Below, piece after piece: positions 10,055 through 60,703 of a stretch of 64,000 nucleotides of DNA. The notes under the pieces were generated by a model. That model worked only from the letters and a program-made list of their open reading frames with translations, ran no database searches and was not told where the DNA came from. This stretch comes from Candidatus Dojkabacteria bacterium. GTDB taxonomy: Bacteria; Patescibacteriota; Dojkabacteria; SC72. Position numbers and translations under genes: made by a program. The stretch spans positions 4,317-68,316 of the forward strand of contig JBMNPD010000001.1 in assembly GCA_050943415.1 (NCBI GenBank). The letters are read 5' to 3'. How positions within the stretch are numbered: position 1 is the first letter of the stretch; each line of letters starts with the position of its first letter.

Positions 10055-11221
10055 CTATTTCTTCTTAAATGAATTATATAACGGAGACATTGCTCTCAAC
10101 TTACTAACAATCTTAGGTAGTACGTCTAACAAATACTCAACCTCCTCAACAGTATTATCTTCTGAGAAAGATAACCTCAAAGAACCATGTGCGTCTTCAG
10201 GTTTAACTCCGATAGCAAGAAGTACATGAGAAGGTTCTAAAGAAGCTGAAGTACAAGCAGAACCTGATGAAGCGCAAATACCTGCATGATTTAGATGCAG
10301 CAGAATAGATTCCCCCTCTATATATTTAAAACAAACATTAACATTAGCAGGCAACCTGTTTACCAAATCACCATTAACAAAACAGTCAGAAATCTTAGAC
10401 AAAATTCCCTCTATAGCCATATCTCTTAATTTCTTAACATACTCATTATTCTTTTTCATGTTCTTTACTGAATTCTGAACTGCCAAACCTAAACCAACAA
10501 TACCAGGTGTATTCTCAGTACTTGCTCTTCTACCCATCTCCTGTGCACCACCATGCAAAAGAGAATCTATCTTTACACCTTTCTTAATATACAAAGCACC
10601 TACACCCTTAGGTCCGCCCAGCTTATGCCCAGAAATAGTTAGCAAATCTACACCTAGCTTCTTCACATCTATATCTACATGCCCTACAGCCTGAACAGCA
10701 TCTGTATGGAAATATATACCATTCTTCTTAGCTAAATCAGCAATCTGAGCAATTGGTTGTATAGTACCAATCTCATTATTTGCAAACATAACTGATATGA
10801 GGATAGTATCCTTTTGTAAAAGCTTCTCTACATCCTTAACATTCACAATTCCACTCCTGTCTACAGGTATGTATGAAATATCAAAGCCATTTTTCTGTAG
10901 GTACTTACAAGGCTCTAAAATGGCATGATGTTCTATAGCTGACACTATAATGTGTTTTCCTTTCTTTTTGTTTGCACTAGCAATTCCTTTGATAGCCCAG
11001 TTATCACTCTCAGTGCCAGAAGAGGTAAAGTATATCTCTGATGGGTCGGCATTAATAGCCTTAGCAACCATTTCTCTGGAGGACTCAATAGCTCTTTTAG
11101 CATTTCTACCAAGATCATATATGGCAGAAGCATTACCGTACTCCTCAATAAAATATGGAATTATCTTCTTCAAAATATCATCAGGCACTCTTCTAGTTGC
11201 AGCATTATCAAAGTAAATCAT
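10055..11221 (-). CDS. nifS: Cysteine desulfurase (NifS/IscS family).
   Basis: PLP-lysine region 'ISGHKLGGPKGVGALY' and active-site 'SSGSACTS'. Confidence 0.9.
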   Translation of the reverse strand: MIYFDNAATRRVPDDILKKIIPYFIEEYGNASAIYDLGRNAKRAIESSREMVAKAINADPSEIYFTSSGTESDNWAIKGIASANKKKGKHIIVSAIEHHAILEPCKYLQKNGFDISYIPVDRSGIVNVKDVEKLLQKDTILISVMFANNEIGTIQPIAQIADLAKKNGIYFHTDAVQAVGHVDIDVKKLGVDLLTISGHKLGGPKGVGALYIKKGVKIDSLLHGGAQEMGRRASTENTPGIVGLGLAVQNSVKNMKKNNEYVKKLRDMAIEGILSKISDCFVNGDLVNRLPANVNVCFKYIEGESILLHLNHAGICASSGSACTSASLEPSHVLLAIGVKPEDAHGSLRLSFSEDNTVEEVEYLLDVLPKIVSKLRAMSPLYNSFKKK

Positions 11222-11423
11222 ACTTCATTATACACCAGTACTCCACCTTTAAGGTAGTAGGTAACACCCTGCACAAAAGGCAAACTTCATACTTTTTAAC
11301 AAATATTTAAGATACTAGAGGGTAATTCTCTAAATAAAACATTGTCAATATTATGTTTCTTTAAAAATAGCTTGTAATATATCTTTGTGGATATCTTAGA
11401 AGGAAGCTAAAAGAATGCTTGGA

Positions 11424-12452
11424 TTACAATATGATATTTACTTCAGATATCAATTCTACTCCATACTCTTTCAGTACAGAATCTTTCATCTTCTGAATAT
11501 ATTCATATATTTCTTTGCCAGAAGCCTTTTTATTTGTTACAACACATAGAGCATGTCTATCAAAAGTACCAACATTACCTATCCACTTCCCTTTCCACCC
11601 TAGTTCATCTAACAATCTTCCAGCAGGAATTCTAACTTTTTCTTTTTCCTCTACAGGATATGATTGTAATTCTGATATCCTTTTAGACAACTCGTTGTAT
11701 TTCTCTACAGAAACAATTGGATTTTCAAAGAAACTACCACAAGTTCCATACTCTTTTACAGAAGGTAATCGTTTCTTTCGTTGCATAATTATTGCTTTCA
11801 TAACTTCTTGTATGCTGTACGGTTCTTTTGCAAAGGAATCCAACTCTTCTTTTAATGAACCGTATCTCCCTGCTCTTTCAGTATATGAAAGTTCAAATTT
11901 CTTTGTATTCTTCTTTAGTTTAAAAATTGCTGAAACAACAATATATTTGTTTTTCCACTCATGTTTAAAATTACTACCTCTGTATCTATATCCACATTTT
12001 TTTGGATTGAATTTTGTTAATTTTTCTTTTGATATATCTATAGCTTCTATAGAATATAATGTATCTATTACAGTTTGACCGTATGCACCTATGTTTTGTG
12101 TTACTGCACTTCCTACACTTCCGGGGATCATAGCCATGTTTTCTACTCCGGCGTAATTTCTCTCTACACACCACTTAACAAAATCATCCCATATTTCTCC
12201 AGAATGTACTTTAACATATACGTTCTCTGAATCTTCTTTAACAACTTCTATTCCCTTGTAATTTGGTTTAATGATTAGACCATCGTAATTGTTTACAAAG
12301 AGGGTATTACTTCCTTCTCCTAGTATAAGAATCTTCTCATCTTTGTATTTTTGTAATATGGAAATTGTTTCTTCTACAGTATTAACTATTTCAAAAAGTT
12401 TTGATTTTGTATCGGTATGAAATGTGTTGTACTTTTTTAATGAATATTTCAT
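11424..12452 (-). CDS. murB: UDP-N-acetylenolpyruvoylglucosamine reductase MurB.
   Basis: FAD-binding 'ILGEGSNTLF' and 'MAMIPGSVGSAVTQNIGAYGQ' signature. Confidence 0.85.
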   Translation of the reverse strand: MKYSLKKYNTFHTDTKSKLFEIVNTVEETISILQKYKDEKILILGEGSNTLFVNNYDGLIIKPNYKGIEVVKEDSENVYVKVHSGEIWDDFVKWCVERNYAGVENMAMIPGSVGSAVTQNIGAYGQTVIDTLYSIEAIDISKEKLTKFNPKKCGYRYRGSNFKHEWKNKYIVVSAIFKLKKNTKKFELSYTERAGRYGSLKEELDSFAKEPYSIQEVMKAIIMQRKKRLPSVKEYGTCGSFFENPIVSVEKYNELSKRISELQSYPVEEKEKVRIPAGRLLDELGWKGKWIGNVGTFDRHALCVVTNKKASGKEIYEYIQKMKDSVLKEYGVELISEVNIIL

Positions 12453-12467
12453 TAATAGAATATATCA

Positions 12468-12519
12468 TAAAAAAGAAAAGAGATGGACTGCCTGACTGCT
12501 AAGTATGACAGTCCATCTC
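12468..12519 (-). terminator. Rho-independent terminator-like hairpin on the minus strand, 16 nt upstream of the murB start. It could alternatively be an attenuator.
   Basis: 11-bp perfect stem (gagatggactg / cagtccatctc) with an 18-nt loop, followed on the minus strand by ttttctttttt. Confidence 0.55.
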
Positions 12520-12764
12520 GGACTTGAAAGGTGTCTTTTCTTTTTGCCCGTTTAAATAAACAACATTTGCTATTTATTTAATTGTTGTTTCTGTCTTAGA
12601 TACATAATCTCCTTTCTTTAAAAAAGATACTGGTGGTTATAAACCAGTAGAGAAAAATGGATCACTCTCCTTCCCATTCGGTAAGCGACAGACAAGACAG
12701 AAACTTTTGATACTATCAACGAGCGCTCTTGTTCAGCAAGAGTTCTAAACACTTTTCAAGTGTG
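12468..12764 (-). ncRNA. Candidate non-coding transcript 2 (~300 nt). It runs from a minus-strand -10 box (tataat at 12776-12771) to the terminator at 12468-12519. It contains several hairpins and an 11-codon RBS-preceded micro-ORF (MYLRQKQQLNK).
   Basis: Promoter-like 'catcatataatg', hairpins (ctcttg...caagag; ctggt...accag) and no ORF longer than 60 aa. I could not assign a family: no RNase P, tmRNA or SRP motifs were found. Confidence 0.3.
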
Positions 12765-12907
12765 GATTGCATTATATGATGAAAGTTTGTATTTGTAAAG
12801 CTTTTTGAAAATGTGGATATGGTTTTGTTAATAGTGTTGACTATTTTGAATAGTTTTGATTCTGTTTTATTACGGAAATTGTTGTGATGATTAATAAAAA
12901 TATATCA

Positions 12908-13250
12908 CAAAAAGAAAGAAGGCGTAAGTGGTTATGTTTTGTTGAACTCAACAGAACAACTTACGCCAGTTGTGACTTGAAGAATGATTGTTCGCCCTTA
13001 AAAAAAGGTTTTTTTCTACTTAGGTTTTGACTTCTCTTTGCTGGGTAATATGTATCCCCATAATAAAGCGTCAAATTTTTCGTCCTAATAAAAAAACCTT
13101 TCTGATTAAAAGAGGCATCTTTATAGAGCCTCTGTGAACGAAGATTTTTTCGTCCCAAATTGGGTTCTGCGTTCACTTTCAGTTGTAAAGGGCTATTTCT
13201 CCTATCCTTCCTCTAGGATAGAAACAGTTTGTAACATTCCTCAAAGTTAC
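12908..13250 (-). ncRNA. Candidate non-coding transcript 1 (~340 nt). It runs from a minus-strand promoter (-35 tgtaca at 13285-13280, -10 tataat at 13262-13257) to a terminator (stem 12921-12929/12958-12966 plus a T-tract).
   Basis: Promoter-like hexamers. Multiple internal hairpins (gaggc..gcctc; tgaacg..cgttca). Terminal hairpin ggcgtaagt/acttacgcc followed on the minus strand by ttctttcttttt. Family unassigned. Confidence 0.3.
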
Positions 13251-13289
13251 AATTACATTATATAACAAAAGTTTCTTTTTGTACAGCCC

Positions 13290-13344
13290 TTTGAAAAATA
13301 CTAAAGGGTATATTTGTGTGAATAGAAATCTAAATATACCCTTT
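13290..13344 (-). terminator. Strong rho-independent terminator on the minus strand, downstream of the small ORF 13472-13636.
   Basis: 13-bp perfect stem (aaagggtatattt / aaatatacccttt) with a 16-nt loop, followed on the minus strand by agtattttt. Confidence 0.65.
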
Positions 13345-13471
13345 CTTAGGAATTAAGAACTAATGTCCTCTCTTCCCGTTTGTTTTACTTGTTGGCTTTT
13401 GTTTCTTTTTTTCCTTTATTTTTTTTGTTTGTCTTGTAGTTGCATTGTTGCGACTACTGTTTTTTGAAACA

Positions 13472-13636
13472 TTAGCCATTTGTTATTCTTTGAGGTGTTT
13501 CTGTTTTTTGTTGATTTGCAACAAAAACCTCTGAGTTTTGTTTTTTAGAAGGGTTTCTATGTTGCCACCCTTCATGATTTCTCTTCTTCTCCACTGCTTG
13601 CCCTTTTGGGGTATCTCTGTTAGGAACTTTACCCAT
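13472..13636 (-). CDS. Small basic protein (54 aa; MGKVPNRDTPKGQAVEKKRNHEGWQHRNPSKKQNSEVFVANQQKTETPQRITNG), unknown function. It falls below the ORF-track length cutoff.
   Basis: Perfect SD 'aaaaaaggagga' sits 5 nt upstream of the ATG. Upstream promoter TTGTTC-17-TGaTATAAT. The strong terminator listed above lies downstream. Confidence 0.5.
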   Translation of the reverse strand: MGKVPNRDTPKGQAVEKKRNHEGWQHRNPSKKQNSEVFVANQQKTETPQRITNG

Positions 13637-13832
13637 TTTTCCTCCTTTTTTATTATGGTTTTTGAAGAGGTTGAGATTATATCAGAATATTATTATTAGA
13701 ACAACGAAATACATAATGTTAGCAATACATGTGTAAAATATTGAAAATATTACAATTTTTTTGTTACTGATTCTGTAAGAACAAGAACTTTATTCTCTGA
13801 TTAAGTATGTTATTTAAATTTTGTATTCTTCT

Positions 13833-14534
13833 CTATTCTTCGTTTGTTAAACAATTAACAATGGAATCAATATGTGCTTGTGTTGTATCAAATATAGGAA
13901 TATCTATATCATTCTGTTTAATTAACATCTCTATTTCAGTACAACCCAATATAATTCCTTCGATTTTTGCTTCTTTAATCATTTCATTAATTACTTTAAT
14001 GTAATATTCCTTTGATTCTTCTTTGATTATTCCTTTACATAACTCATTAAAAATTATTCTATCTATTTCATCAATAGTAGTTGATTCTTTAGAAATTGAA
14101 ACATTAAGACCATTATCTGCTAATCTATCTTTTAGAAAATCTTCCACCATTGTATATTTGGTTCCGATTAATCCTACATTTAATATTTCTTTCTCTTTAC
14201 ATTTTTTAGCTACTGAATCAGCTATATGAATGAGTGGTATATTAATTTTACTTTGTATGAAGTCTGCTAATTTATGCATAGTATTGGTAGCAATTACAAT
14301 ATAGTCAGCACCTGCTTGTTCAAGAAGTATAGCTATATTAGCAAGTTCAGTACCTATTTCTTCCCATTTCTCTTCTAACATTAACTTCCTGATGTCTTCA
14401 AAATTGACATTGTAAATAATTAATTTTGCTGAATTTAAACCACCTAAAATTTCATTTACTTGTTTATTTATTCTTTCATAATAATGAACAGATGATTCAT
14501 AACTCATACCACCTATAATACCTATTGTTTTCAT
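13833..14534 (-). CDS. Aspartate racemase (Asp/Glu/hydantoin racemase family).
   Basis: 'IGIIGGMSYESS' and 'ILGCTEI' catalytic cysteine regions. Confidence 0.8.
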   Translation of the reverse strand: MKTIGIIGGMSYESSVHYYERINKQVNEILGGLNSAKLIIYNVNFEDIRKLMLEEKWEEIGTELANIAILLEQAGADYIVIATNTMHKLADFIQSKINIPLIHIADSVAKKCKEKEILNVGLIGTKYTMVEDFLKDRLADNGLNVSISKESTTIDEIDRIIFNELCKGIIKEESKEYYIKVINEMIKEAKIEGIILGCTEIEMLIKQNDIDIPIFDTTQAHIDSIVNCLTNEE

Positions 14535-14617
14535 AGATAAGACCTCCTTTCAGGTATTTAATATTATTTTTAATTGTAACATAAAAAGATTAAATATTAC
14601 TTTAATCTCTTATCTGA

Positions 14618-17949: not shown

Positions 17950-18258
17950 TTAGAATTCCTGTTTCATCTCTTCTATGTAGTATTGTTCAATCTCTGCTTT
18001 TGGTAAAGCAAAAATATGTAACAGGTCTCCTACGAAGAATCTTCCGTATTGTTTACGTATTTGATTGAACAAACTGTAAATTTCTTCATTAAGAATGATT
18101 GCGATTGTAATCTCGCGAAAATAATATGTACCAACAATTATATAATCTTCCGGGTTATGTAATTGTTTCCGAACTTTGTCGAATGAATCTTGTATTGCTA
18201 AAGTCCGGTTATTTGGTATATATATTTTATCGCTATCGAGTATGTATATCTCTGCCAT
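17950..18258 (-). CDS. Hypothetical protein (102 aa).
   Basis: ORF with a downstream hairpin (13-bp stem at 17889-17935) plus a T-tract on the minus strand. Confidence 0.45.
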   Translation of the reverse strand: MAEIYILDSDKIYIPNNRTLAIQDSFDKVRKQLHNPEDYIIVGTYYFREITIAIILNEEIYSLFNQIRKQYGRFFVGDLLHIFALPKAEIEQYYIEEMKQEF

Positions 18259-22115: not shown

Positions 22116-22385
22116 ATGTCTGACGCATATACAGATGCAAAACAAAAAAACACTAAATGGGACAATATTGAAGAAGATCTCGAGAAATGTCAGGAATCAA
22201 TAGAGTCTGCCATTGATTCATTGCAGTGGTTGCTTGATGAGATTAAAGAAACCAAAGATTCTCCAACTAATCGGCAAGTTGAGATATTGAAGAATTTTTA
22301 TTCAGGCTCGATGAAGCAAGTTGAGAGGATTGTTGAGATTCTAATTCGGATAAAAATGGAGATTGCGGCTAGGAAAAACAACTAG
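22116..22385 (+). CDS. Small helical protein, paralog family member 1 (89 aa).
   Basis: RBS aaaagggagg. Shares 'W..E.DL' and 'L.NFY.G....ER...I.I..EI' motifs with the 23161-23427 product. Confidence 0.6.
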   Translation: MSDAYTDAKQKNTKWDNIEEDLEKCQESIESAIDSLQWLLDEIKETKDSPTNRQVEILKNFYSGSMKQVERIVEILIRIKMEIAARKNN

Positions 22386-22459: not shown

Positions 22460-22933
22460 ATGTTCTCTAAAAAAGAAAAAATAAGAAGTGGGAAGGAATT
22501 GTTTTTAACTCTTCAAAATATTGTAAATGGTGTTAAAGGACTCGAAAAAGAATGTATCGAAATGTTTAACGGTGTATCGAATACGATGCTGCCTGTTACT
22601 CAGGAAGATGAAGCAGAAATAAAGATACTGATTGAAAAGTTAGAAAAGATGGTTAGGAACATCTTAACTACTTGCCAAACCCTAGCTGTATGTAACTCAG
22701 GAGGAGAAAACAATGAGGAAGCCAATATTGAAAGACTGAATAAAATTCTTGAGCATCTCAAGAGTTCAGAAAAATTGCTTGAGGAAATTCGTTTAGGAAG
22801 ACCTCTTAAGCAGAAGCAAGAAGTCAGTGAAAAGTTTTATGAGGCATATAAAATCATTAATAAGGTTACACTTATGCTTATAGAACTGTTTTCTCGATTC
22901 TACGGAATCGAAAGATCTTCAGATGAAGATTAG
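22460..22933 (+). CDS. Helical protein, paralog family member 2 (157 aa, possibly a duplicated fold).
   Basis: RBS aaaaggagg. Its 5'UTR is a partial copy of the cassette UTR (tcagaaaatatatag). 'ERLNKILEHL' resembles 'ERLNAICIQL' in member 3. Confidence 0.6.
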   Translation: MFSKKEKIRSGKELFLTLQNIVNGVKGLEKECIEMFNGVSNTMLPVTQEDEAEIKILIEKLEKMVRNILTTCQTLAVCNSGGENNEEANIERLNKILEHLKSSEKLLEEIRLGRPLKQKQEVSEKFYEAYKIINKVTLMLIELFSRFYGIERSSDED

Positions 22934-23130: not shown

Positions 23131-23499
23131 TAGCACATGGCACAGCCTAGGAGGTGAATTATGTCGAACTATGTTCCGAAAGGATCTATCTGGGAAAAGA
23201 AACTTGAGACAGATTTACAGGAACTGCAAAAACAACTTGTTGATGCTGAGAAGAAAGCCTCTACTGTATATATAGACGCTAGTCTTACAGTTGCCGACAA
23301 GGACACTTTAAATTTTTATGCTGGTGGAAGAGACGAATTAGAAAGGCTGAATGCTATATGTATTCAACTTACTAAAGAAATCGGTTCGTTCTTATCCAGA
23401 ACGGATGATTTGATTAAAGAAGAATAATTTTACTTAGAACTCTAGGTGTGGTGTGGTATAGTTACCATCTCCAAATTTTTACAATCATGCCATGTGCTA
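23131..23499. repeat. Second inverted-repeat pair (tagcacatggca at 23131-23142; tgccatgtgcta at 23488-23499) bracketing gene 3. The downstream arm overlaps the Nudix gene stop codon.
   Basis: Exact 12-mers. The flanking 'ccatctccaaatttttacaat' is shared with the 22981-23000 copy. Confidence 0.8.
23161..23427 (+). CDS. Small helical protein, paralog family member 3 (88 aa).
   Basis: RBS 'ctaggaggtg'. Homologous to member 1. Confidence 0.6.
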   Translation: MSNYVPKGSIWEKKLETDLQELQKQLVDAEKKASTVYIDASLTVADKDTLNFYAGGRDELERLNAICIQLTKEIGSFLSRTDDLIKEE

Positions 23500-25056: not shown

Positions 25057-25530
25057 ATGAAAATATATATTACAGGAAGTGCTGGAAGTGGTAAGAGTAC
25101 ATATGCTAAAAAACTTTCCGAAAAATTAAAGATACCTGTATATAGGACAGATGATTTCTACGAAGAGAAAGAAAAAAGGATGTTTACAGGCAAAGAGATT
25201 AGTGAGGTTGTAGATATAGATTCTGATTGGATAATAGAAGGAGCTTACTATATTCCTAAATATGTAAGAGCTGCAGACAAGGTTATATATATTCGAATAG
25301 ATATATTAAAAACAGTATTTAGAATATTTAAAAGGTGGTTTAGTGATGTAGAAATTAGAAGAAAATTTTCTCTATTAGATACAATTAAATTGTGTTTTAC
25401 TACAGTAAGAGATAGATATACTTCTGAAGGAATAGATGTAAAGACAAATATACCAAGGCATTACAAAGAAAAAGATAGGTATAATCTTTGTAAAAAGAAT
25501 GCTAAGGAATTTGTAGAACTATATTTTTAG
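25057..25530 (+). CDS. P-loop NTPase / nucleoside(tide) kinase-like protein (adenylate kinase or topology-modulation TopoMod-like).
   Basis: Walker A 'ITGSAGSGKST' at the N-terminus. About 157 aa. Confidence 0.6.
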   Translation: MKIYITGSAGSGKSTYAKKLSEKLKIPVYRTDDFYEEKEKRMFTGKEISEVVDIDSDWIIEGAYYIPKYVRAADKVIYIRIDILKTVFRIFKRWFSDVEIRRKFSLLDTIKLCFTTVRDRYTSEGIDVKTNIPRHYKEKDRYNLCKKNAKEFVELYF

Positions 25531-34427: not shown

Positions 34428-34733
34428 CTAGTTCTGTTGTTTAATTGCTTTATTAAAAAAAGCTATAGCTTTGTTTCCTTCGTCTCCGAGTTTAAGGTTT
34501 TCAAAAAATTTTGGAATAGACTCGTATATAAGGTCTTTCGTCATAAGTGGATGTTGATCGGAAAAAACATCTTGAAATGCAAGTAAGGTCTCTAATACCA
34601 ATCCTTCTGGTAAGAGTTCTTGATCAGCAATCTTTGCTATCCTTGGGAAAAACTTCTCAAGCATATAATTCGATATGTTTTTCCAAGTTTGCATAATAGC
34701 CGTCTTAATTTGATCTTCTGTTAATTTTATCAT
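34428..34733 (-). CDS. Hypothetical small protein (101 aa).
   Basis: ORF with a downstream hairpin (aaagcacc...ggtgcttt) plus a T-tract on the minus strand at ~34362-34425. Confidence 0.45.
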   Translation of the reverse strand: MIKLTEDQIKTAIMQTWKNISNYMLEKFFPRIAKIADQELLPEGLVLETLLAFQDVFSDQHPLMTKDLIYESIPKFFENLKLGDEGNKAIAFFNKAIKQQN

Positions 34734-34973: not shown

Positions 34974-35354
34974 GTGGAAACAAAATACATTGAAGGTTTA
35001 GGGTATTGCCATGTCGTTATAGAGGATAATTTCTTCTATGTCAAAATATCAGTTGTAAATTTGACTACTAGCGTTCTGTATATGGATTTTCCTGATAAAG
35101 ATCTATGTGGTTTCTATGAACATAGTGGATGGGTAGCCTTCGTTAGAGGTGGTCAATGTTACTGCAAGCATCTGGTAACAGGAGAAATAGTTCCATTTCC
35201 TCAGTCACAAAAAGCAGTTCTGTTTTTTGTAGACAAAGAGGTATATGATTACCTTACGAAAACAGACTGGGGAAAAGAATCTGGTTTTTACAACACTTTA
35301 AGATCGATGGACCAAGGCATCGATGCTGTAGTAGTGACTCGCTACAGACAATAA
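34974..35354 (+). CDS. Hypothetical protein (126 aa).
   Basis: ORF preceded by 'aaaggagga'. Confidence 0.45.
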   Translation: METKYIEGLGYCHVVIEDNFFYVKISVVNLTTSVLYMDFPDKDLCGFYEHSGWVAFVRGGQCYCKHLVTGEIVPFPQSQKAVLFFVDKEVYDYLTKTDWGKESGFYNTLRSMDQGIDAVVVTRYRQ

Positions 35355-41593: not shown

Positions 41594-42544
41594 TTACATT
41601 GATCCTTCTCCGTTAAAAAGTACATAGTCGAAAATAGCACTATGCCACTTTCTTTCAGGTATTAACATTTCTTTTCCTCTGAAAACACTATTACAGTAAG
41701 CAGAGGTTCTTAATTCTATCATTCTAAATGAATCCATGCAGCTATTACCGTTTGAAACTGTCATGTTATAGTATACACCAATGTTACCAGCTACTGCTTT
41801 AATTGTTACTGTATCCAATTTATAACCGTCTTTCATCTCTTGTAGATTAATGGTTACTGTGTCTGTAGCTGTATTATATTTTGTCCAGGTATCTAAAAAG
41901 TTTTCTGCATTGTTACATTCTGTGCCGTTATCAGAAAAACAATAGTTGGTAACATCTTCATCACTGTACGGCTTGTACTCTCCTGCTTCTCCATTTGCAT
42001 TGTAGTTTTTTCCGTATACTTTAGTTACAGAAAAACCTGCTCTAGATTCCCCTTTACTTAATTGAATATTCAATGTACAGTCTGTGAATGTAGCTTCATT
42101 CAGTGGTAAGCTCCAAATTTGACCAGGCATAACTTCGTATGGTGAAGTTTGATCTGCCTCTCTTAAAGTTACATTATATTCGTTTCCATCTGCAGGTAAA
42201 CAAAAGTTTATATTTGAAAGTCCAGTACTATCTCCTAGTATTGTTAGTAATGCTGTAATTTCTTTATCTTCTTTATTTTCTTTTAGAATAACTCCTTGTG
42301 GAAAGGTTATCGGTTTACCAATTGTGTTCATTGCAGACATAACTGTTTCTAAGGAATATGTAGAGAGCTTGTCTAAAATTAGATCAGATATCTCTAATGC
42401 TTCTGCTGATGCTCTTTCATCAATTGTTGATTTTTTATCTCTATGACTTCTAGAAAAGATTGATAGTCCTATGATTGATGAGACTACAAGTACTACCATT
42501 GCCATTGCTAATGCTTGAGCTTTGTACATGTTTTTCTTGTTCAT
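41594..42544 (-). CDS. Membrane-anchored secreted hypothetical protein (316 aa).
   Basis: N-terminal hydrophobic anchor 'AQALAMAMVVLVVSSIIGLSIF'. Last gene of a three-gene operon. Confidence 0.5.
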   Translation of the reverse strand: MNKKNMYKAQALAMAMVVLVVSSIIGLSIFSRSHRDKKSTIDERASAEALEISDLILDKLSTYSLETVMSAMNTIGKPITFPQGVILKENKEDKEITALLTILGDSTGLSNINFCLPADGNEYNVTLREADQTSPYEVMPGQIWSLPLNEATFTDCTLNIQLSKGESRAGFSVTKVYGKNYNANGEAGEYKPYSDEDVTNYCFSDNGTECNNAENFLDTWTKYNTATDTVTINLQEMKDGYKLDTVTIKAVAGNIGVYYNMTVSNGNSCMDSFRMIELRTSAYCNSVFRGKEMLIPERKWHSAIFDYVLFNGEGSM

Positions 42545-47342: not shown

Positions 47343-47518
47343 ATATAATAGATGATACAGTAATTAGATGGTATGTACAATAACAAATACGATGTGTTTT
47401 AAATGTTGATGATTTTGAGAAGAGTCTAGGTAAGTATATGTTGGAAACATATTATTTAGGATATGTATTATACATATCACTAATCTTACCTAGACTTTCT
47501 CTATCTGTTAGTTATATT

Positions 47519-48213
47519 TTACTCGACAAGCTTGAAATCAAGCTTATCGGTACCTTTGAACATCCAGGGGTCTCCCTGCCCGCTGCTGCGGTATTCTACG
47601 GATTTCGGTGAAATCCGAATGTCCAGCAATTCCTGTGGAGTAATCGTTCCCGATTTCTCACAAGATGTGAGAATGGCCTGTTCATTACTGAGTTTCAACC
47701 AGAATTGGTTGTCCTCTTGTAATTTGGCCTGATGTACATTGTACATCATCGGTTTCTCGGCAAGAGCCTCTCCGAAACATTGTTTCGAAACTCCATAGAT
47801 GACTCTGCTGTTTTGGAGATCTGCAGACCATCCACGGATTTTTTGTGAGAAGTATAACGGTACTCGATTACTGTAAGTCGTAAAAATACGATACTTACCT
47901 TCCGGTACATCGATCACTTCTCTATATGGAGGCCCTGAAAAAGGCCCACTCACAATTGTGAGTAAGTCTTCAGGCACTCGAGGCAATTCATATGGCTTCA
48001 CTTCTCCTGTAGGATATATACATTCTATCCTAGGATAAGCGCCATGCATATGACATGATAAATTACCTCCATTTAGAACACATTGGTTTGCCCACTCAGC
48101 AAACTCAGGAATCTTCCATGGCCATGTGGCTGGATCACATGTCTGGTTACCTGCCATAACGGCAGATACTGATGTTAACAACATCAGTACAACAACAATA
48201 AACAACAATTTTC
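47519..48213 (-). CDS. Secreted hypothetical protein with an atypically GC-rich coding sequence. The start is revised to MKNRK.
   Basis: Signal peptide 'LLFIVVVLMLLTSVSAVMA'. Strong SD 'aaagaggagg' sits upstream of the ATG at 48213. GC is clearly higher than in flanking genes. Confidence 0.6.
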
Positions 48214-48421
48214 GGTTTTTCATTATTCCCCTCCTCTTTAGAGAATGATGATTTTGAATGAACAAAAATGCGTCATAGACGCTTATAACTAACAGCACAT
48301 GTATTTTATCAAATTTCTTTTTTTCATGCAACTCTATAGGTTCTTATTACCATATTTTTATATAACCGCTAATTCTAAATATATGATATATTTAAACATT
48401 AATAATTTAAAACAAAACAGT

Positions 48422-60151: not shown

Positions 60152-60703
60152 ATGACTTGGTTATATATTTTACTAGGTATTGTCGTTCTTTTACTTGCCA
60201 CATTTATTGGCTTGTACAACAAATTGGCAAGACAGAAAGTTACAGTTGAGGAAGCAGCTTCCGATATTGAAACTTTCTTAAAACAGAGGTATGACATGAT
60301 TCCTAATCTTGTAGAAATTGTTAAAGGTTATGCAAAACATGAGAGAGAAACATTTGCAGAAGTTACAAACCTGAGAACAAAAGCTATGTCATCTACTTCA
60401 CTTGAGGAGAAGATGGAAATAGATCAAAAGTTAGATAAGGGGATTGCTAAAATTTTTGCTATTGCTGAAAATTATCCAGAATTAAAGTCTAATGAGAATT
60501 TTGTTCAATTACAGAAAACATTAGAAACATTAGAAGGTGATATTCAAAAATCAAGACGATACTACAACGGTACTGCAAGAGATTTCAATGCTATGATTGT
60601 AGTTTTCCCAAACAATATCATTGCGGGTATGCTTAACTTTAAAAAAGTAGAATTCTTTGAAGCAACAGAAGAAGAGAAGAAGAATGTAGAGATTAAATTC
60701 TAA
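60152..60703 (+). CDS. lemA: LemA family protein.
   Basis: N-terminal TM helix and conserved 'AENYPELK' region. Confidence 0.8.
   Translation: MTWLYILLGIVVLLLATFIGLYNKLARQKVTVEEAASDIETFLKQRYDMIPNLVEIVKGYAKHERETFAEVTNLRTKAMSSTSLEEKMEIDQKLDKGIAKIFAIAENYPELKSNENFVQLQKTLETLEGDIQKSRRYYNGTARDFNAMIVVFPNNIIAGMLNFKKVEFFEATEEEKKNVEIKF

Follow-up and report, generated by a model that had tools for sequence, protein, structure and literature searches.

The region described here lies within 64,000 nucleotides (nt) of a Candidatus Dojkabacteria genome (GCA_050943415.1, contig JBMNPD010000001.1, positions 4,317 to 68,316), and this whole stretch is referred to as the window. Its largest gene-free gap, counting open reading frames (ORFs) of at least 90 aa, is the 1380 nt (12453–13832) between murB and a racemase gene, and it is the only long gap that is ORF-poor, the next largest (540 and 563 nt) being occupied by genes of 88–89 aa. 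A preliminary description of the sequence reported that the gap contains no ORF longer than 71 aa, and divided it into three consecutive promoter-to-terminator units on the minus strand; the longest ORF is indeed 71 aa, and the promoters, Shine-Dalgarno (SD) sequences and hairpin-plus-T-tract terminators all lie at, or within a few bases of, the places where they had been found. Promoters, transcription start sites and terminators are throughout predictions from sequence, and all features are on the minus strand unless noted otherwise. The best reading of the gap is that it contains a structured non-coding RNA outside Rfam, present as two diverged tandem copies (units 2 and 3) directly downstream of a small-protein operon (unit 1).

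Units 2 and 3 are built alike. Unit 2 has a promoter at 13257–13285 (TGTACA-17-TATAAT, 10 of 12 consensus positions), and a predicted RNA of about 340 nt (12905–13252). Its helices are P1 (13252–13235 paired with 12986–12970), the P2 hairpin (13224–13199) and P3 (13193–13188 paired with 12999–12994), and they are followed by a terminator with a stem at 12967–12921 and then a T-tract. The corresponding parts of unit 3 are the promoter at 12771–12799 (TTTACA-17-TATAAT, 11 of 12 positions, and the best promoter-like site in 4.5 kb), a predicted RNA of about 295 nt (12468–12766), P1 (12761–12747 with 12536–12522), the P2 hairpin (12742–12726), P3 (12724–12719 with 12551–12546) and a terminator (stem 12519–12480, T-tract 12479–12468) that ends 16–17 nt before the murB ATG at 12452. 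The interior of unit 3 also contains a terminator-like hairpin (12649–12628), an SD-like sequence AAAGGAGA (12615–12608) and an 11-codon ORF (12605–12570). For both units the earlier outline is borne out, with the promoter, the hairpin-rich stretch of about 340 nt and the terminator of unit 2 all present, as are the −10 box, the stretch of about 300 nt and the hairpin with T-tract of unit 3.

There is no general excess of promoter-like sites (19 observed, 21 expected). The promoters of units 2 and 3 share a 28-nt block that is present nowhere else in the window, and two matches to it were seen in none of 100 shuffles. Among related loci the block is found only at this same locus, being present in the relative L026 described below, and it has no match in viral contigs. 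The arrangement expected of an independent small RNA (sRNA) gene, in which a non-coding stretch is enclosed by its own promoter and an intrinsic terminator, is thus predicted here.

Informative relatives came from a protein collection, genome and metagenome scans with MurB having given no relative above 62% identity. L026 (GCA_964480345.1) has a MurB 75% identical to that of the window and a single RNA unit; L035 is a sister strain with a 98% identical MurB, whose allele is also that of L036–L039, L040 and L042–L044; and L028 and L047 represent a 70% relative in which prs is upstream of murB. The MurB of the window is identical to a protein that NCBI assigns to a Dojkabacteria metagenome-assembled genome, the next relatives are Dojkabacteria and Patescibacteria genomes of the same kind, and the contigs are metagenomic in origin. 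Unit 3 is orthologous to L026 5700–5988 (global alignment z-score of 4.1) and to a compact unit in L035.

Comparison of these units reveals several features of their folding. First, the minimum free energy (MFE) folds are far more stable than those of dinucleotide shuffles, with z-scores of −7.1 for unit 3, −6.3 for unit 2, −5.9 for the L026 unit and −6.8 for the compact L035 unit. Units 2 and 3 each still score −6.3 when their terminators are removed, a level reached by one of 102 random 290-nt background windows (z-score −0.8 ± 1.6). Second, a common frame of P1, P2 and P3 is present in the same order and position in unit 2, unit 3, L026 and L035. P1 (11–16 bp) joins the nucleotides that directly follow the predicted start to those immediately preceding the terminator, P2 (6–10 bp) is a hairpin a few nucleotides downstream of the P1 5′ strand, and P3 (6–7 bp) is a long-range helix around a variable insert of 70–190 nt. 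Third, when the 5′ end is fixed, closure by P1 is matched among 2000 shuffles by none for unit 3, one for L026 and three for unit 2. Fourth, in a manual helix register of the four sequences (a three-sequence version was also made) 109 of 113 cells (96%) are canonical pairs and 17 pair columns contain double changes, compared with 2–5 double-change columns when the 3′ partner is slid by 1–3 nt. Finally, the pairs are G·U in five cells, which would be A·C mismatches on the opposite strand, and because these agree with the minus-strand T-tracts the RNA is assigned to that strand. This pattern of paired substitutions indicates that the fold of the units is conserved through compensatory changes. 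MAFFT and RNAalifold applied to the four units gave no consensus pairs because the unit interiors are too divergent.

The only recurrent motif in the interior of the RNA units is purine-rich and SD-like, taking the form AGAAAGGAGA(U/A) in unit 3, L026 and L035, AUAGGAGAAAU in unit 2 and UUAGGAGAUUAUG in L028; its enrichment is modest and its pairing partner varies among the sequences. The SD-preceded micro-ORF of 11 codons that had been singled out in unit 3 is present but is not conserved, and neither it nor any other unit-internal ORF is found in the orthologous units of L026 or L035, where the purine-rich AAAGGAGA motif recurs instead. A CsrA-type sponge was considered and rejected, with GGA present 15 times (about 14 expected) and AGGAG mildly enriched (5 copies, about 1.9 expected).

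Searches of curated RNA families did not identify these units. With Rfam 15 the whole window yields only two tRNAs at gathering thresholds, both outside this region, and scanning of 12300–13950 at E ≤ 10 yields chance matches only (at most 24 bits, with thresholds of 40–76). The families covered include RNase P, tmRNA, signal recognition particle (SRP) RNA, 6S, T-box, riboswitches, ribozymes, group I and II introns, and OLE, GOLLD, ROOL and raiA. There are no Rfam matches in L026 or L028 and none that is credible in the compact L035 unit, and ARAGORN finds no tRNA or tmRNA gene in 12000–14000, in agreement with the initial report of no RNase P, tmRNA, SRP or T-box signature. Tandem Repeats Finder gave nothing relevant, and a literature search found no RNA motif described for Dojkabacteria.

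The similarity between units 2 and 3 identifies them as old, diverged tandem duplicates. Their promoter blocks are 80% identical over 46 nt, and unit 2 is followed by a remnant (12802–12907) of the murB promoter box and N-terminus that mirrors the stretch after the unit-3 terminator, with a T-tract, a TGATATATT box (12907–12899), a former start codon in which ATG is now ATC (12891–12889), and murB sequence that is still recognisable from about codon 5 to codon 35. BlastN comparison of 12865–12802 with 12410–12348 shows 75% identity over 64 nt (E 5e-5), tblastn of MurB onto the remnant shows 48% identity over 31 aa (E 2e-5), and the remnant also matches L035 2971–3000. The second RNA copy arose by a tandem duplication of about 450–490 bp that carried with it the murB promoter box and approximately the first 35 codons. 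Degraded genes had been among the options raised in the preliminary description, and this holds solely for the ~105 nt of the murB 5′ remnant (12907–12802); no other protein remnant was found in the region, the remaining stop-to-stop frames having neither Pfam or NCBIfam matches nor similarity by tblastn to the neighbouring proteins of relatives. The option of novel sRNAs stands insofar as these are structured non-coding RNAs outside Rfam, but units 2 and 3 did not originate separately, being diverged duplicates of one another. Two further candidates were rejected. A pseudogene of the ancestral upstream neighbour (alr or prs), or of any neighbouring gene, gave nothing above noise in tblastn, and under an alternative genetic code (Candidate Phyla Radiation [CPR] code 25 or 4, with TAG or TAA as sense) no plausible ORF opens, the large genes of the window being intact under code 11.

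Unit 1 has the sequence organization of a bicistronic operon in which a 54-aa ORF and an overlapping 39-aa ORF precede a hairpin. Its promoter (13676–13704) consists of TTGTTC (13704–13699), 17 nt and an extended −10 TGaTATAAT (−10 at 13681–13676), and TGATATAAT of this promoter is likewise found upstream of the small ORFs in L026 and L035. The 54-aa basic ORF (13472–13636, with its ATG at 13636) follows the SD sequence AAGGAGG (13647–13641). It is probably coding, yet dispensable: its sole relative, a weakly similar 60-aa ORF (33% identity), occupies the corresponding place in L026, it is absent from the sister strain L035, and it has no match in Pfam, NCBIfam or PHROG and no credible match in PDB. 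Although the promoter, SD and 54-aa ORF are as first described, the terminator does not lie right after this ORF as had been thought, since a very basic 39-aa ORF (13360–13479) intervenes, its ATG overlapping the 54-aa stop by 8 nt. This second ORF, which had been missed, is the better conserved of the two. Its C-terminal motif QKP[TS]xxTNGKxxH followed by a stop is conserved in L026 5488–5598 and L035 2628–2747, and in comparison with L026 the last 22 codons comprise 10 that are identical, 7 with synonymous changes and 5 with non-synonymous (conservative) changes. The other two frames over the same 22 codons have 1–2 synonymous changes and 4–5 stops, and because of this pattern in its own frame and the stops in the other two, the 39-aa ORF is, on this codon evidence, a real coding gene. 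It has no match in Pfam, NCBIfam, PHROG or PDB, and no homologue besides itself among 1.84 billion representatives; the only match in the homologue search is the public gene call P0123 (73 aa), which corresponds to the 39-aa ORF over its first 39 residues. This call apparently reads through the TAG of the 39-aa ORF, some pipeline having probably used a different genetic code.

The hairpin that serves as the putative terminator of unit 1 (13293–13344) follows the 39-aa ORF and has a 13-bp stem at 13344–13303, then AGTATTTTTC, with a weak T-tract. It is conserved in L026 (5618–5660) and absent in L035, and the helix is also visible in a chance alignment to mir-513 in Rfam at a permissive threshold. 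A separate 9-bp hairpin (13436–13457) lies inside the 39-aa ORF; it has a T-tract on the plus strand only, and resembles a plus-strand terminator. There is no plus-strand gene nearby, and this hairpin is not conserved in L026.

The gap forms part of a hypervariable island (12480–14568) that extends over the racemase gene as well as the small ORFs, units 2 and 3, and the murB remnant. In comparison with L035 the flanks are 97.6% (16500–14569) and 95.0% (12479–9000) identical at the DNA level, yet between the GNAT terminator and the pre-murB T-tract there are 477 nt of unrelated or rearranged sequence in L035 and 2089 nt in the window, and just 87 nt within the island align to L035, at 72% identity. 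The L035 segment contains, in order, the TGATATAAT promoter, an SD sequence, a 39-aa ORF with the conserved tail, a compact P1–P2–P3 RNA half the size of those in the window, and a terminator; it lacks the unit-1 hairpin and an internal promoter, as well as the racemase gene, the 54-aa ORF, unit 2 and the murB stub. The window island is closer to that of the distant L026, with which it shares 174 nt at 76% identity (spanning the 39-aa C-terminus, the hairpin and the promoter) and a further 84 nt at the operon promoter (71%). The relationships of the island allele thus disagree with those of its flanks, and because the island resembles L026 more than the 98% sister strain, the comparison points to replacement by recombination at this spot. 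Only two island haplotypes are seen among the near-identical strains, and the island genes use strong SD sequences, unlike most of the genome. The region is best read as the core of a lineage-specific, fast-turnover island, and not as a decayed protein gene or a murB riboswitch.

Other parts of the neighbourhood also differ among relatives. The racemase gene (13833–14534) is SD-led, belongs to the asp_race subfamily, has the lowest G+C content of the neighbourhood (0.23–0.24) and is absent at this place from both L035 and L026; it looks like a recent insertion beside murB. In more distant relatives an alanine racemase gene (alr) abuts murB instead. A different structured RNA of about 250 nt (z-score −4.8) is found between prs and murB in L028 (1058–1325) and L047 (3206–3473), with its own promoter (TTGACA-17-TAAACT) and terminator, and its beginning, AGGAGATTATG, is identical to that of the unit-3 micro-ORF. 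L028 and L047 differ there by single-nucleotide polymorphisms, of which 2 of 3 are in predicted helices with pairing kept. On the other side of murB, the 202-nt spacer between murB and nifS (11222–11423) has no notable structure (z-score about 0) in either the window or L035, and a Na/Pi cotransporter gene (538–541 aa) that is convergent with murB in L026 (7030–8649) and in the 66% relatives is missing in the window and L035.

We consider the chance that units 2 and 3 represent genuine non-coding RNA genes, constrained in their fold and organized as described above, to be somewhat better than even. There are several observations that weigh against this. First, the helix frame rests on four sequences from three genomes, two of the sequences being paralogues, and pairs were aligned according to the MFE fold of each individual sequence, so that the apparent covariation is inflated. 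Second, global alignment of the interiors gives z-scores near noise (4.1 for unit 3 with L026, 3.2 for unit 3 with unit 2, and otherwise below 2.1), and the similarity is approximately what neutral divergence since the duplication would give. Third, the plus-strand folds are also very stable (z-score −7.1 for unit 2), and short terminator-bearing spacers elsewhere reach −5 to −7. Fourth, the L035 unit has no promoter of its own and for that allele is not an independent gene, while the RNA of similar size that precedes murB in L028 and L047 has no demonstrable homology to these units and a p value of about 0.07 in the closing-helix test. Finally, a generic scan for further copies, using a terminator and an upstream complement, is unspecific.

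Some of the same observations favour the possibility that the region is largely non-functional spacer, with duplication and rearrangement debris accumulating in a recombination hot spot, selection acting on the promoters, terminators and 39-aa gene only, and the hairpins being by-products of local inverted duplications in AT-rich DNA. The divergence is then approximately neutral, with the murB stub (changing on one side only) 75% identical and the interiors (changing on both sides) barely alignable; the two strands fold about equally well, other terminator-bearing spacers have comparable z-scores, the L035 unit is half-sized, and the island has been gained, lost or replaced between strains that are 95–98% identical. 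Nonetheless, P1, P2 and P3 persist with 17 compensated pair columns amid randomized surroundings, closure by P1 exceeds chance in three units when the 5′ end is fixed, and the dedicated promoter block has been retained in both the window and L026. Moreover, a streamlined, dense genome has kept 0.9 kb of non-coding DNA for long enough that the stub has diverged by 25%. Taking these together, we regard the spacer interpretation as unlikely, though by no means negligible.

The position of unit 3 directly before murB raises the question of how murB itself is expressed. There is no SD sequence at its start, and a TGATATATT box (12467–12459) is separated by 6 nt from the ATG (12452–12450), giving a leaderless-type promoter and start within 12450–12467. 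The spacing between TGATATATT and ATG is the same in L026 and L035 and is 8 nt in L028, and this stretch is 92–96% conserved across the alleles while everything upstream changes. This is not peculiar to murB. The distance from −10-like hexamers to start codons peaks sharply at 5–7 nt (11 of 60 window genes), and most window genes are without SD sequences, examples being those at 10055–11221, 11424–12452, 25057–25530, 41594–42544 and 60152–60703. Strong SDs are found in a few genes, including the 54-aa ORF, the racemase gene, 17950–18258, 22460–22933, 34428–34733, 34974–35354 and a secreted-protein gene starting at 48222. Because −10 boxes cluster 5–7 nt before start codons and most genes lack an SD, this pattern suggests that leaderless mRNAs are widespread in this Dojkabacteria genome, and murB is most likely transcribed separately as one of them.

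A leader or attenuator for murB had been among the options raised initially, and could take the form of a riboswitch or of a protein-dependent or leader-peptide attenuator, in which a signal, detected by the structured RNA itself or through translation of the small ORF or micro-ORF, would decide whether transcripts initiated at the unit-3 promoter (in L035, at the small-ORF promoter) stop at the terminator or read through into murB. An RNA with a terminator does precede murB in every allele of this small clade, these being four in number and including L028 and L047, in which prs is upstream and there is no small ORF. In addition, 2–3 nt separate the P1 3′ strand from the terminator, a spacing seen in many riboswitch expression platforms; in units 2 and 3 the stretch preceding the terminator could in principle form short alternative hairpins with the terminator 5′ strand; and internal genes without SDs do occur in this genome. 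However, the predicted terminator hairpins are strong (−18 to −23 kcal/mol), and a fold in which the terminator is prevented is 17 kcal/mol less favourable. When the nascent transcript is folded, P1 remains in place, the terminator 5′ strand is free or in a hairpin of only 5–6 bp, and no stable antiterminator is predicted. The sequence-conserved sensing core of a riboswitch is not seen either, since the interior that would form the ligand pocket is nearly unconserved at 75% MurB identity (z-scores as given above, at most 3.2 for pairs other than unit 3 with L026) and even between 98%-identical strains, being largely replaced in L035. The micro-ORF is not conserved, and unit 2 keeps its fold although followed only by a dead murB stub. 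Because no antiterminator is predicted, the interior is unconserved, and murB has its own conserved TGATATATT-N6-ATG box that fits the leaderless pattern of the genome, a riboswitch or attenuator is disfavoured, and the proposal that murB is controlled by an attenuator is unlikely. The last terminator would instead be constitutive, insulating the murB promoter from upstream transcription. A leaderless mRNA requires an AUG at its 5′ end, so that read-through into murB would be counter-productive. In more distant Dojkabacteria (MurB at most 66% identical) alr or another gene abuts murB and there is no such RNA unit. We consider a cis-acting leader of murB to be improbable, although the presence of an RNA with a terminator before murB in every allele of the clade leaves some small probability of a role in cis.

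In a further alternative, the units would serve as micro-protein mRNAs or make up a locus resembling a type I toxin-antitoxin system, where the 11-codon ORF, a 15- or 44-codon GTG ORF (unit 3) or the 71-aa ORF (unit 2) is translated under the control of 5′–3′ pairing. This reading draws on an ATG in unit 3 with a good SD-like AAAGGAGA placed 4 nt ahead of it (with an identical AGGAGATTATG in L028, and in a genome where SD-led genes are rare enough to make such a site noteworthy) and on the long-range 5′–3′ pairing that is a feature of hok-type mRNAs and is shared by these units, but it is very unlikely, as no unit-internal ORF has kept its position, length or sequence in L026 or L035 or has a family match, the peptides are not hydrophobic toxins (a 15-aa tail excepted) and the small proteins of unit 1 are hydrophilic and very basic, and neither a convincing antisense promoter nor a partner RNA is evident.

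Returning to the interpretation of units 2 and 3 as structured RNA genes, we envisage that in the window and L026 each RNA copy would start at its own near-consensus sigma-70-type promoter, whereas in L035 the RNA would be made as the 3′ part of the small-ORF mRNA. The transcript would form a three-way junction clamped by P1, which ties the 5′ end to the pre-terminator stretch and should protect both ends, with P3 carrying the variable multi-hairpin insert and its purine-rich AAAGGAGA-type motif, and release would occur at the strong intrinsic terminator, expected to be constitutive. The RNAs may be expressed and stable, acting as sRNAs (either of the 3′ untranslated region [3′-UTR] type or from their own promoters), either in partnership with the small basic protein encoded next to them, on that protein, or on other targets.

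A small structured RNA gene beside a small-protein gene is a familiar arrangement among bacterial sRNAs, although this one is not in any curated family. MicL and DapZ are reportedly sRNAs with internal promoters, CpxQ and SroC are said to be processed from mRNAs, and RNAIII, SgrS and SR1 are sRNAs said also to encode small peptides. As with 3′-UTR and dual-function sRNAs, the structured RNA here directly follows a small ORF and has an intrinsic terminator in common with it; the L035 allele, with no separate promoter, is like the processed type, and the window and L026 alleles, with an internal promoter, are like the MicL/DapZ type. There are differences, in that no homology of sequence or structure was found in Rfam, the units (250–340 nt and P1-clamped) are larger than typical Hfq- or ProQ-type sRNAs, and the tandem duplication of the unit here also took in the 5′ end of the gene that follows. 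Riboswitch and attenuator leaders similarly have a promoter, a multi-helix domain closed by P1, and an intrinsic terminator directly before a biosynthetic gene, but the units have no conserved core or antiterminator, murB has its own leaderless-type promoter, and unit 2 precedes only a gene stub.

Two other classes share aspects of this organization. 6S RNA has paired 5′ and 3′ ends and fast sequence change under a conserved structure, and occurs as paralogue pairs in some bacteria, and the units resemble it (RF00013) in having a closing stem formed by the two ends, a fast-evolving sequence under a conserved fold, and a paralogue pair. However, there is no Rfam match to it at E ≤ 10, the units are 245–285 nt before the terminator compared with about 180 nt, and the predicted fold is a branched three-way junction rather than a rod with a central bubble. 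Correia, ERIC and RUP are small structured repeat elements or miniature inverted-repeat transposable elements (MITEs), and like these the units are AT-rich, a few hundred bp long, bounded by an inverted repeat (P1), hairpin-rich, intergenic and beside gene starts. A MITE or dispersed repeat was nonetheless rejected, as comparison of the region with the window by self-BLAST gives the local tandem pair alone, some 400 kb of related loci yield no additional copy, target-site duplications are absent, and the two copies are a tandem duplication that includes part of a flanking gene, not a transposed element.

A more speculative proposal, which overlaps with the reading of the units as structured RNA genes and to which we give little credence, is that the tiny basic protein and the P1–P2–P3 RNA together constitute an undescribed two-component module, acting either as a ribonucleoprotein or as mutual antagonists, with diversifying or balancing selection on the module in episymbiotic CPR bacteria. 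If true, this would explain why the cassette is exchanged between strains with 95–98% identical flanks, why the window allele is closer to that of a 75% relative than to that of its sister strain, and why the RNA fold is kept amid sequence turnover. Such behaviours are typical of conflict systems, including those involved in defence, addiction or host interaction.

The non-coding RNAs of CPR bacteria are almost uncharted, and 0.9 kb of retained non-coding DNA is conspicuous in a small, tightly packed genome. The locus provides a candidate for a new structured RNA family with a defined, searchable three-helix frame, so far confined to one narrow clade, together with an orphan 39-aa protein that has a clear coding signature. 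It is also a worked example of a tandem duplication that has copied the leaderless promoter and N-terminus of a neighbour, and of a cassette-like hot spot that differs between near-identical strains. That many genes, murB among them, start 5–7 nt after a −10 box matters for the annotation of 'leaders' in such genomes.

Some features elsewhere in the window are also of note. An SD-led gene at 47519–48331 encodes a secreted protein with the signal peptide MKNRKLLFIVVVLMLLTSVSAVMA, and its real start is probably the ATG at 48222. A coding stretch of this gene (47700–47989) has the most negative z-score (−7.85) of the 102 background windows, and the spacer after it (47343–47518) has a strong hairpin (z-score −6.95). 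On the plus strand, the genes at 22116–22385, 22460–22933 and 23161–23427 encode small proteins of 89, 157 and 88 aa that are Glu/Lys-rich and probably helical, and these three genes fill two apparent further gaps of about 550 nt.

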